64,000 bases of DNA from Gammaproteobacteria bacterium (GTDB taxonomy: Bacteria; Pseudomonadota; Gammaproteobacteria; Ga0077536). Within the stretch, counting starts at the first letter, position 1, and the number at the start of each line of letters is the position of its first letter. Below are positions 39,351 to 45,250 of this stretch, one piece after another. The position numbers and the translations under genes were made by a program. The stretch is taken from positions 26,220 through 90,219 of the forward strand of contig JAVJVZ010000076.1 in NCBI GenBank assembly GCA_040220855.1, read 5' to 3'. The notes below the pieces were generated by a model. That model was not told the DNA's origin, did not search any database, and saw only the letters and a list, made by a program, of their open reading frames with translations.

Positions 39351-40904
39351 TCAACAAAGGTCGCCCTGGCGCAGGCGAAATCGCTGAATCTTACCGGTCG
39401 CGGTTTTCGGCAGGACATCGATGAACTCGATCCAGCGCGGGTACTTGTAGGGCGCGAGCCGGTTCTTCACGTGTTGCTTGAGGCTGTCGGCGAGCGTATC
39501 GCTGGCGTCGTGGCCGTCCTTGAGGACGACGAAGGCGCGCGGTTTGATCAGCCCGGCTTCGTCGGCGTGGCCGACCACGGCCGCTTCGAGCACCGCGTCG
39601 TGCCCGATCAGGGCAGCTTCGACCTCCGCCGGCGAGACGTAGATGCCGCCCACCTTGAGCATGTCGTCGCTGCGTCCGCAGTAGACGTAGTAGCCATCGT
39701 CGTCCTGGCGGTACTTGTCGCCGGTGCGCGTCCACGTGCCGGCGAAGGTGTGGCGGCTGCGCGCCCGGTTGTTCCAGTACATCGCCGCGGCGGTCGGGCC
39801 GGCCACCTGCAGCTCGCCGATGTCGCCGCTGGCGACAGGCTCGCCCGTATCGTCGACGATGCGCAGCGCGTAGCCGTCGACGGCGCGGCCGGTGGTGCCG
39901 TAGCGCACGTCGCCGGGGTGATTGGACAGGAAGATATGCAGCATCTCGGTCGAACCGATGCCGTCGAGGATGTCGACGCCGAATTGCGCATGCCAGCGCG
40001 CGCCGAGTTCCGCCGGCAGCGCTTCGCCCGCCGAGGTGCATACGCGCAGGGCGAGCGCCTCGCGCGACGGCAGCGCCGGGTGCGCGAGAAGGCCGGCGTA
40101 GAGCGTGGGAACGCCGTAGAAAATGGTCGCGCCGTGTTCCTGCAGGCGCGCGAATACCGCCTCCGGCGTCGGCCGCTCGGCCATCAGCACGGTGGTCGCG
40201 CCGACGCTGAGCGGGAACGACAGCGCATTGCCGAGGCCATAGGCGAAGAACAGCTTGGCGGCGGAGAAGACGACGTCGTCCGCGTTGATGCCGAGGATCG
40301 GGCGCGCATACAGTTCCGCGGTCAGCGCGAGCGAGGCATGCACGTGCACGGTGCCCTTGGGGCGTCCGGTCGAGCCCGACGAGTAGAGCCAGAAGCACGG
40401 CTCGTCGCTGCAGGTCGCGGCAACGCTGTCGTCACCGTCGGCGGCGGCGAGCAGGGCCGCGAGTGCGTCCTCCGAGCCGCCGCTGACGACGACACGCTCG
40501 AGTGTCGGCACGCTCGCTTGGAGGCCTTCGAACTGTGGCGCCAGCGGCGCCGACACCACGGTGACGCGGGCGCGGCTGTCGCTGAGCATGAAGGCGTAAT
40601 CGTCGCGGGTCAGCAGCGTGTTGACGAGCACCGGTACGATTCCGGCGCGGATTGCGCCGAGAAACAGCACCGGTAACGCGAACGTATCGTGCATGGCCAG
40701 CAGCACGCGCTGCTCCGGGGCGATACCGAGGGCACGCCACATCGCCGCGGCACGGCGCACCGCGGCGTCGAGCTCGGCATAGGTGTAACGCCCGTGGTCG
40801 TCGATGTAGGCGAGCTTGTCGCGGTAACCGGCGGCGAGGTTGCGCTCGACGAGGTCGGCCGCGGCGTTGTACGACCGCGGCGCCACGTCCAGGCCGGCGC
40901 CCAT
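39351..40904 (-). CDS. bclA: benzoate-CoA ligase family (AMP-forming)
   Basis: 517 aa; AMP-binding motifs YSSGSTGRPKG, GTTGRAVDGY and the C-terminal PKTATGKIQR lysine motif. Start ATG overlaps the ferredoxin stop (TGATG). Confidence 0.85.
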   Translation of the reverse strand: MGAGLDVAPRSYNAAADLVERNLAAGYRDKLAYIDDHGRYTYAELDAAVRRAAAMWRALGIAPEQRVLLAMHDTFALPVLFLGAIRAGIVPVLVNTLLTRDDYAFMLSDSRARVTVVSAPLAPQFEGLQASVPTLERVVVSGGSEDALAALLAAADGDDSVAATCSDEPCFWLYSSGSTGRPKGTVHVHASLALTAELYARPILGINADDVVFSAAKLFFAYGLGNALSFPLSVGATTVLMAERPTPEAVFARLQEHGATIFYGVPTLYAGLLAHPALPSREALALRVCTSAGEALPAELGARWHAQFGVDILDGIGSTEMLHIFLSNHPGDVRYGTTGRAVDGYALRIVDDTGEPVASGDIGELQVAGPTAAAMYWNNRARSRHTFAGTWTRTGDKYRQDDDGYYVYCGRSDDMLKVGGIYVSPAEVEAALIGHDAVLEAAVVGHADEAGLIKPRAFVVLKDGHDASDTLADSLKQHVKNRLAPYKYPRWIEFIDVLPKTATGKIQRFRLRQGDLC

Positions 40905-41227
40905 CAGAACTCGGGCGCGAGCGTCAGGCGGATGCCATCCAGCTCGTCGACGTACGGCACCTGGCAGGCGAGGCGGGACCTCTCCTCGAAATGCCCGGAG
41001 TCTTCCACCATCACCTGCTCGTCGGTCGCACGCGGCGCGAGTTTGCCGGTCCATTCTTCGTCGACGTACACGTGGCAGGTCGAACAGATGCACTGGCCGC
41101 CGCAGATGGCCTCGATGGGCAGCCCGCCGTCACGCAGGATCTCCATCAGCGTGTAGCCCGCGCGCGCTTCGAGCCGGTGCTCTGCGCCGTCGCGGTCGGT
41201 TGCGATCACGGTACCCATCGAGCTCAC
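40904..41227 (-). CDS. adrenodoxin/putidaredoxin-type [2Fe-2S] ferredoxin
   Basis: 107 aa; CGGQCICSTCH (C-x5-C-x2-C) plus a distal LACQV cysteine. GTG start overlaps the boxB stop (GTGA). Confidence 0.8.
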   Translation of the reverse strand: MSSMGTVIATDRDGAEHRLEARAGYTLMEILRDGGLPIEAICGGQCICSTCHVYVDEEWTGKLAPRATDEQVMVEDSGHFEERSRLACQVPYVDELDGIRLTLAPEF

Positions 41228-44346: not shown

Positions 44347-44356
44347 CGGGTGCTCC

Positions 44357-45250
44357 TCAGTGGGCGGTGATGAGCTCGCGCACGGGCGGCAGTTCGAGCA
44401 GCGCCGTGAGCGCCTGCTCGACACCGTTGGCGGAGGTATCGATGGTGTAGTCGGCGCGGCCGTAGAGGCTCGCGCGCTCGTCGAGGATACGGCGCAGGTC
44501 GGCCATCGCGTTGCGGTGATCGGCCATCGGACGGTAATCGCCCTGCGCGATCACGCGCTCCATGTGCTCGCGCGGCGCGGCTTTCAACCAGACGGTACAG
44601 CACGACGCGAGCAGGAAATCGAAGGTGCGTGGCTCCGATACCAGGCTGCCGCCGCAGGCGATCACGGCATGCTCGAAGCGATCCAGCGAGGCAGCCAGCG
44701 CGGCGCGTTCGTGACGCCGGTAGGCGGTCTGCCCACCGCGCGCGAGAATCTCGCTCACCGCCATGCCGGCGTTGCGCTCGGTTTCCTGCACCAGTTCGAC
44801 GAACGGCACGCCCAGCCGCTTGGCGAGCGCCGCACCGAGGGTACTCTTGCCGGCGCCGCGCAGGCCCACCAGCGCGATGTGACGGGGAACGGGTGAGGGT
44901 CGCTCGCGAGTCGAGGCGAGCAGCGTGGCTAGGCGCGTCAGCTCGTCTTCGCCGGCGCCGCGCAGGCGCTCGCGCAGCAGCAGGTACTCGACGCTCTGCT
45001 CGACGCGCGCATCGACGAGATCGTCGAGCGCCACGTGCATGGCGGCAGCGATCGCGCGCAACACCAGTATCGAGGCGTTGCCCTTCCCCGCCTCGAGCTG
45101 GGCAAGGTAGCGTTCCGAGACGCCGGACGCGGCAGCAAGGATGCGCCGTGACATGCCGCGCCGCGCGCGCACGCGGCGCACGCGCGCGCCGAGCTGGGCC
45201 AGGTAGTGGCCACTCTCGCTGGCTGGGTCGGCGGACGCAGGGACACTCAT
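44357..45250 (-). CDS. boxR: BoxR/BzdR-type regulator (XRE HTH + shikimate-kinase-like domain)
   Basis: N-terminal XRE HTH (GMSRRILAAASGVSERYLAQLE), C-terminal P-loop GLRGAGKSTLG and shikimate-kinase fold. 10 nt upstream of boxC. Confidence 0.8.
   Translation of the reverse strand: MSVPASADPASESGHYLAQLGARVRRVRARRGMSRRILAAASGVSERYLAQLEAGKGNASILVLRAIAAAMHVALDDLVDARVEQSVEYLLLRERLRGAGEDELTRLATLLASTRERPSPVPRHIALVGLRGAGKSTLGAALAKRLGVPFVELVQETERNAGMAVSEILARGGQTAYRRHERAALAASLDRFEHAVIACGGSLVSEPRTFDFLLASCCTVWLKAAPREHMERVIAQGDYRPMADHRNAMADLRRILDERASLYGRADYTIDTSANGVEQALTALLELPPVRELITAH

Follow-up and report, generated by a model that had tools for sequence, protein, structure and literature searches.

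A Free [2Fe-2S] Ferredoxin in the Place of BoxA in an Aerobic Benzoyl-CoA (box) Operon of Uncultured Gammaproteobacteria

The stretch analyzed here (the window) is 64,000 nucleotides of contig JAVJVZ010000076.1 from a Gammaproteobacteria bacterium (assembly GCA_040220855.1). It contains five genes in the order boxR-boxC-boxB-fdx-bcl, all on the minus strand at positions 39351-45250. The fourth gene, fdx, encodes a free [2Fe-2S] ferredoxin and occupies the slot after boxB. The cluster is probably a BoxR-controlled operon for the aerobic benzoyl-CoA (box) pathway, in a distinct and old lineage that is so far known only from uncultured Gammaproteobacteria. Sequence comparison makes it equally probable that BoxB has switched its redox partner in this lineage. 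Electrons would pass from NAD(P)H through an unlinked flavoprotein reductase to the ferredoxin and then to the diiron centre of BoxB, the rest of the pathway being unchanged. Somewhat less secure, though still favored, is the broader statement that an ancient BoxB clade, spread over at least 37 species-level lineages of uncultured Gammaproteobacteria, switched from BoxA to a free ferredoxin fed by a housekeeping reductase. The initial annotation had read BoxB as running on a ferredoxin/reductase chain, and the sequence comparisons below support that reading.

BoxA is regarded as the specific reductase of BoxB, and surveys score the box pathway by boxA together with boxB (KEGG K15511/K15512). 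BoxA is a 2x[4Fe-4S]/FAD NADPH reductase unlike other monooxygenase reductases, while BoxB is a monomer that lacks an effector protein (PMC4498308). In a 2024 survey, clusters that lack BoxA count as incomplete (PMC10803450). No description of a BoxB linked to a [2Fe-2S] ferredoxin was found in the searchable full-text literature.

Each of the five genes scores above its family cutoff in hidden Markov model searches (Table 1), and the gene order given in the initial annotation stands. The same five genes, with the same lengths and identical proteins, are present in the NCBI gene calls on an 11-kb contig of GCA_040216455.1. Their titles there take the form 'MAG: ... [Gammaproteobacteria bacterium]', and the ferredoxin is named merely '2Fe-2S iron-sulfur cluster-binding protein'. 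BoxB is a full-length match to the crystallised Azoarcus evansii BoxB (PDB 3PER/3PF7, E 5e-214) and keeps the six diiron ligands (E120, E150, H153, D211, E240, and H243). BoxR is composed of an XRE helix-turn-helix (HTH) domain and a shikimate-kinase-like domain, matched in the identical NCBI protein by Pfam HTH_31, HTH_3, and SKI. Among the components by which a box pathway is recognized, BoxB, BoxC, a BzdR/BoxR-type regulator, and a benzoate-CoA ligase are present at the locus. A BoxA beside boxB and a BoxD in the cluster are absent within the window.

A six-frame scan of the whole window returned no C-x2-C-x2-C-x3-C motif. The BoxA of Mycetohabitans (683 bits against TIGR03224), used as a tblastn query against the same 64 kb, gave nothing better than E=6. 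A Pfam survey of approximately 48 open reading frames (ORFs) in the window found no FAD_binding_6/NAD_binding_1, ferredoxin-NADP+ reductase (FNR)-like, or ferredoxin-reductase domain. Both earlier statements, that the window holds neither the 4Fe-4S motif CxxCxxCxxxCP nor an FNR-like FAD/NADPH domain, are confirmed by these scans. The initial annotation had also allowed for a boxA hidden in a dismissed frame; none exists in the window, and the corresponding locus of 37 related genomes has none within 10 kb (0 of 37). Its remark that boxD is missing locally is right in fact. No aldehyde dehydrogenase (ALDH) or BoxD was found in the window by the Pfam survey or by tblastn with a generic ALDH and a BoxD-like protein, nor was either matched in the 37 related loci. 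The absence is nevertheless ordinary, because only 11 of 33 long canonical box loci have a BoxD-like gene nearby.

The small ORF downstream of boxB is, by its sequence, clearly a vertebrate (adrenodoxin/putidaredoxin)-type [2Fe-2S] ferredoxin. Its predicted cluster ligands are Cys39, Cys45, Cys48, and Cys85, with a C-x5-C-x2-C-x36-C spacing that is invariant across 28 sequences, and the protein is acidic (pI 4.5). The best PDB matches, both full-length, are Arx (3LXF, E 4e-21) and Rhodobacter FdVI (1E9M, E 2.5e-20); putidaredoxin, terpredoxin, and adrenodoxin are matched over the full length as well. Together with the PF00111 match, the ligand spacing and these structures uphold the adrenodoxin-type assignment made earlier. 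On homology, the protein is a standard single-electron carrier, and its closest relatives of known structure are redox partners of the P450 type. No NCBIfam model exists for the box-linked ferredoxin.

Other identities for this protein were considered and rejected. It is not the iron-sulfur cluster (ISC) ferredoxin, as the TIGR02007 (fdx_isc) score is 44.6 bits against a cutoff of 132 and the gene context is box, not isc. It is not a detached domain of PaaE or BoxA, from which it differs in cluster type and Cys spacing. The ferredoxin of anaerobic benzoyl-CoA reductase is of the 2x[4Fe-4S] type, and a role as donor for that enzyme was also rejected, the Pfam survey of window ORFs having returned no benzoyl-CoA reductase genes.

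The nearest relatives outside box clusters are from Rhizomicrobium and other Alphaproteobacteria (loci L039-L081, e.g., L052:5083-6419) and are 54-60% identical. In 38 of 42 such loci the ferredoxin gene lies 9 nucleotides downstream of the gene for a 342-aa protein. This partner is a full-length match (E 1.8e-144) to the thioredoxin-reductase (TrxR)-type ferredoxin-NADP+ reductase of R. palustris (5YGQ). No box genes are present in these FNR-ferredoxin loci. A small conserved protein of approximately 126 aa is encoded upstream of the pair, and no client enzyme is evident. Below approximately 58% identity, homologues of the window ferredoxin are no longer in a box context, so the box-linked ferredoxins form a group of their own.

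A ferredoxin profile scan of one genome per GTDB species returned 80 loci. The 38 loci with a ferredoxin at least 58% identical to that of the window make up the ferredoxin-type set. All 38 come from uncultured metagenome-assembled genomes (MAGs) of soil, activated sludge, groundwater, and Tara and Saanich sea water, and two complete chromosomes are among them (OZ257136.1 and OZ244144.1, of 5,706,739 or 5,845,834 bp). The order boxC-boxB-fdx, on the same strand, is kept in 37 of the 38 loci, so that the ferredoxin insertion seen in the window recurs in 37 MAGs. The ligase gene directly follows fdx in 28 related loci, and boxR precedes boxC in 29. The boxR-boxC-boxB-fdx core is also kept where the ligase is not adjacent. 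Between the boxB stop and the fdx start, the gap has a median of 5 nucleotides and is 7 nucleotides or less in 24 of 36 loci. The CxxCxxCxxxCP motif occurs in one ferredoxin-type locus, in a 548-residue ORF that is distant from the box genes and does not match BoxA.

All ORFs within 10 kb of the 37 loci were clustered, and the recurrent ones were passed through Pfam. The recurrent neighbor families are MBOAT, acyltransferase, fatty-acid hydroxylase, luciferase-like, F420-type, and cyclase. Within this distance there is no conserved P450 or other ferredoxin-dependent oxygenase, and no further gene family is kept consistently around the core.

These surroundings bear on whether the ferredoxin is a passenger that serves an unlinked P450, another oxygenase, or general metabolism. 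Ferredoxins of the adrenodoxin/putidaredoxin type are generic partners of many oxygenases. In addition, one locus (L029; JADLGE010000031.1, 9000-12200) retains an intact ferredoxin, 69% identical to that of the window, in the absence of boxR, boxC, boxB, and bcl. Here the ferredoxin stands between FGase/AdoMetDC/spermidine-synthase genes and histidine kinase and GGDEF-EAL genes, which are the usual flanks of the box operon. A passenger role is nonetheless very unlikely. The position and near-zero spacing after boxB persist despite differing flanks and a non-adjacent ligase, the box-linked ferredoxins group apart from their homologues, and the 10-kb neighborhoods hold no conserved alternative client of the kinds named above.

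A BoxA profile run against metagenomes returned 80 loci, for a total of 81 with the reference cluster of the Mycetohabitans megaplasmid (boxR-boxC-boxB-boxA). In all 72 BoxA loci with BoxB on the contig, boxA is immediately downstream of boxB (boxC-boxB-boxA). The CxxCxxCxxxCP motif is present in all 81. A homologue of the ferredoxin is present in none of the 81, which answers the concern, raised in the initial annotation, that the ferredoxin might be a standard member of clusters that already have BoxA. Taken together, the two locus surveys indicate that the slot after boxB holds either boxA or the ferredoxin, never both.

A BoxB tree was constructed from 95 full-length sequences with an actinobacterial sequence as the outgroup. 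The ferredoxin-linked BoxB (n=38) and the BoxA-linked BoxB (n=56) are reciprocally monophyletic. Sequences share at least 69% identity inside each clade and 58-66% between the clades. A three-residue segment (A. evansii positions 270-272) is present in 56 of 56 BoxA-type sequences and is missing from all 38 ferredoxin-type sequences and from the actinobacterial BoxB. A further 24 positions are fixed differently between the clades. The 270-272 indel and these 24 positions are candidate features of a docking surface. The ferredoxin-type clade is about as deep as the sampled BoxA-type clade, so the arrangement is old and not a recent accident. Neither clade varies at any of the six diiron ligands, and for this reason BoxB is predicted to be functional.

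This last point argues against decay of the pathway, in which the loss of BoxA would have left a non-functional remnant. By a marker-based scheme the cluster would count as incomplete, and the absence of BoxA is treated as an impediment in PMC10803450. However, none of BoxB, BoxC, the ligase, and the ferredoxin is disrupted. Their family scores are high, and the catalytic and cluster ligands do not vary across 38 species-level genomes. The reading frames stay open even though identity within the BoxB clade falls to 69%. Decay is therefore the least credible of the explanations considered, and its likelihood is slight.

The main rival to a change of partner is that a BoxA encoded elsewhere still reduces BoxB, with the ferredoxin as an accessory (for example a further shuttle, a redundant donor, or a factor for protection or coupling). 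In other bacteria boxA can indeed be unlinked, for example on replicons of Cupriavidus and Rhizobium that lack boxB (PMC10803450), and the BoxA search covered the window and 10 kb around the related loci. The best 120 BoxA matches listed for the Mycetohabitans query in a 5.8-billion-protein collection are all from Burkholderiaceae, a result that says nothing about absence in the ferredoxin-type clade. This explanation fits poorly with the direct adjacency of boxA and boxB in 72 of 72 loci, and with the presence of fdx at that position in 37 of 37 ferredoxin-type loci. The split of BoxB into two clades by partner type, with a partner-correlated indel, would also be hard to explain if the redox partner had not changed. 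We consider a distant BoxA improbable, although less so than a passenger ferredoxin or a decaying cluster.

Under the favored partner switch, the ligase would make benzoyl-CoA, and the ferredoxin would be reduced by an NAD(P)H-dependent ferredoxin reductase whose gene lies elsewhere in the genome. The ferredoxin would hand two single electrons to the diferric BoxB centre, BoxB would then activate O2 and epoxidise benzoyl-CoA, and BoxC would open the ring. Electron transfer from the ferredoxin to BoxB is inferred from synteny, mutual exclusivity with BoxA, and co-cladogenesis. Both the existence and the identity of a separate reductase are presumed. Any such reductase must be encoded elsewhere. 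The candidate ranked as most likely is a TrxR-type FNR, of which neither the window nor the ferredoxin-type box loci hold a copy; its pairing with the ferredoxin's sister group is the strongest clue so far to the type of reductase involved. Alternatively, the enzyme could be of the putidaredoxin-reductase or Fpr type.

Several points weigh against this chain. It is drawn from sequence comparison. Half of it is unseen, since the window contains no reductase and the clustering of ORFs within 10 kb of the 37 loci found no reductase family conserved around the core. The absence of boxA applies only to the 64-kb window and to 10 kb around related loci, in carriers that are all MAGs. The summed charge change over the 24 clade-discriminating BoxB positions is zero, with no shift towards a new docking surface. 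Finally, L029 may reflect a recent clean deletion of the box genes or a role of the ferredoxin that is independent of BoxB.

The cluster shares with canonical BoxABC systems (Azoarcus/Aromatoleum evansii, Paraburkholderia, and Mycetohabitans) an orthologous BoxB and BoxC, a BoxR-family regulator, a ligase, and the boxR-boxC-boxB order. It differs in that BoxA, with its 2x[4Fe-4S] and FNR-like FAD/NADPH domain, is replaced in its slot by the free [2Fe-2S] ferredoxin. The ligase gene follows fdx within the operon, whereas in the canonical systems it is upstream and divergent. BoxB belongs to a separate clade without residues 270-272, and there is no boxD nearby.

The class I P450 chains (Arx/ArR, putidaredoxin/PdR, and adrenodoxin/AdR) are alike in ferredoxin family, Cys spacing, size, and acidity, and in the proposed logic of NAD(P)H, reductase, ferredoxin, and oxygenase. 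The acceptor here would be a carboxylate-bridged diiron epoxidase in place of a haem P450, and no reductase gene is linked. The alphaproteobacterial TrxR-type FNR and ferredoxin pair (5YGQ) has the closely related ferredoxin described above, but its FNR has no counterpart at the box loci. Four-component toluene/alkene monooxygenases (e.g., T4moC ferredoxin and T4moF reductase) also have a separate small [2Fe-2S] ferredoxin inside a diiron oxygenase operon. Their ferredoxins, in contrast, are Rieske-type, and the reductase is normally in the same cluster. Free ferredoxins already serve many diiron oxygenases, and a similar logic operates in plastid desaturases. Because this logic is known from class I P450s, toluene monooxygenases, and plastid desaturases, no new chemistry or new kind of system is proposed.

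The phenylacetyl-CoA epoxidase PaaABCDE is likewise a diiron epoxidase that acts on the ring of a CoA thioester, and it is related to BoxB (PF05138, a weak match). The [2Fe-2S] domain of PaaE has plant-type spacing and is fused to the FNR-like reductase, whereas the ferredoxin here is a free vertebrate-type protein, and no PaaB/C/D-like subunits are present. Electrons in the Paa system pass via this [2Fe-2S] centre (PMC4498308).

Marker-based annotation would call the ferredoxin-type cluster incomplete in every carrier, all of which are uncultured. If the partner switch is correct, aerobic benzoyl-CoA degradation does not always include BoxA, a conclusion to which the actinobacterial type described below, with neither partner gene nearby, would contribute. 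Surveys that require boxA would then systematically under-count the pathway in the environment. A BoxB clade served by a generic ferredoxin would be an example of a diiron epoxidase that has exchanged its electron-delivery module. In heterologous hosts, a ferredoxin-driven BoxB could couple more easily to standard reductase/ferredoxin systems.

What looks like a third box architecture was identified in Nonomuraea gerenzanensis (NZ_LT559118.1; L084:9001-13090), where a gene for a PaaX-like regulator, on the other strand, separates boxB from boxC. Within 9 kb of this locus there is neither a BoxA nor a ferredoxin. The 11.85-Mb Nonomuraea record is also not among the 12 collection records with a near-full-length BoxA tblastn match, and on this basis BoxA is not universal among organisms with BoxB and BoxC.

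Two atypical loci were seen on the BoxA side. In a BoxA-type metagenome locus (L159:6234-9251, Ga0255220_1000083), BoxC ends at 7871 and BoxA starts at 8001, with no boxB detectable between them. An ORF on plasmid pSpoCB-3 of Sulfitobacter sp. CB2047 (L085:9064-9708) was considered as a split BoxA and rejected. This 214-aa 'hypothetical protein' matches the FNR half alone, at 50% identity. It adjoins an IS6 transposase and a benABCD/catB cluster and appears to be a truncated boxA remnant.

Table 1. Coordinates and family assignments of the box operon in the window.
Feature	Position	Strand	Description
Benzoate-CoA ligase (bcl)	39351-40904	-	517 aa; TIGR02262 813 bits (cutoff 375)
[2Fe-2S] ferredoxin (fdx)	40904-41218	-	104 aa; PF00111 43.6 bits (cutoff 21)
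BoxB, diiron benzoyl-CoA 2,3-epoxidase oxygenase component	41224-42642	-	472 aa; TIGR03225 856 bits (cutoff 499)
BoxC	42661-44346	-	561 aa; TIGR03222 899 bits (cutoff 712)
BoxR, BzdR/BoxR-family regulator	44357-45250	-	297 aa; NF006015 370 bits (cutoff 204)
Putative boxR-operon promoter/operator	45251-45317	-	sigma70-like promoter and direct repeats

The five genes are closely spaced downstream of a single putative promoter. The boxR gene begins at an internal ATG (position 45250) inside the ORF 44357-46021, in agreement with the end coordinate of the initial annotation. A mechanically called ORF over the same region (44307-45287) is a wrong-frame artefact. A 10-nucleotide spacer separates boxR from boxC, whose ATG is preceded by GGAG, and boxC ends 18 nucleotides upstream of boxB. 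The boxB/fdx junction reads ...CTG TGA gctcg ATG GGT..., with a 5-nucleotide spacer.

An alternative GTG start for fdx at 41227 would give a protein of 107 aa, the length first reported. The preferred ATG lies 9 nucleotides downstream, and the length is corrected to 104 aa. All 27 aligned homologues begin with M-G/S/A-T... at this ATG, and the NCBI call agrees. The GTGA overlap between boxB and fdx, described in the initial annotation, does exist in the DNA, but it is probably unused for the same reason. The TGATG overlap between fdx and the ligase is real. This junction reads ...TTC TGATG GGC..., the ligase ATG shares one base with the fdx stop, and the same 1-nucleotide overlap is present in the NCBI gene calls. 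A terminator-like hairpin at 39378-39361 was set aside; it lies inside the last ligase codons, and the hairpin count is below the shuffle expectation.

Just upstream of boxR is a sigma70-like sequence, TGGACA-16-TATAAT (45317-45290), with 11 of 12 matches. Two 21-nucleotide direct repeats with TGCACTAT are present at 45251-45271 and 45283-45303, 32 nucleotides apart. Paired boxes resembling TGCA..TAT[AT]..TGCA, approximately 30 nucleotides apart, overlap the -10 region, and related loci (L002-L060) have boxes of similar form at the corresponding site ahead of boxR. An exact search for the paired CTGCACTAT operator of the window in other loci returned matches only in the same organism. The paired boxes are likely BoxR operators, judged from the BzdR/BoxR operators of Azoarcus, which they presumably resemble; we take this likeness as a lead only. 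Regulation of the operon by BoxR and benzoyl-CoA would be expected.

The flanks of the operon are as initially described, a divergent GCS2 operon upstream and a histidine kinase gene downstream, and were confirmed by family searches and NCBI calls. Directly downstream of the ligase on the minus strand (35427-38979) are genes for a histidine kinase (465 aa) and then a response regulator (RR)-PAS-GGDEF-EAL protein (approximately 710-750 aa). In related loci the kinase recurs downstream of the ligase in approximately 15 and the GGDEF-EAL protein in approximately 14, which suggests a cyclic di-GMP signalling pair linked to the box operon. Upstream of boxR, a divergent plus-strand cluster (45413-50168) includes GCS2 (glutamate-cysteine ligase family 2), an AstE/AspA-like deacylase, and spermidine synthase. 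Within it, by synteny with locus L001, ORF 47189-48685 is probably N-formylglutamate-amidohydrolase-like and ORF 48855-49298 is probably AdoMet decarboxylase-like.

Elsewhere in the window, a minus-strand gene at 12835-14022 encodes a protein that ends in a cytochrome P460 domain (PF16694, 99 bits); its N-terminal part, approximately 240 residues long, has no Pfam match. A minus-strand gene for a Baeyer-Villiger/FMO-like flavin monooxygenase (51746-53530) lies beside an AraC-family regulator (53691-54626). The same group (51746-56942) contains a second AMP-forming ligase with a long N-terminal extension (54711-56942, minus strand). The region 2828-11029 contains three luciferase-like monooxygenase genes (2828-3976, 3977-5020, and 9821-11029), together with an FAD-binding aromatic-hydroxylase-like gene (4996-6378), a zinc alcohol dehydrogenase, and an alpha/beta hydrolase. 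This region may be another oxidative catabolic island.

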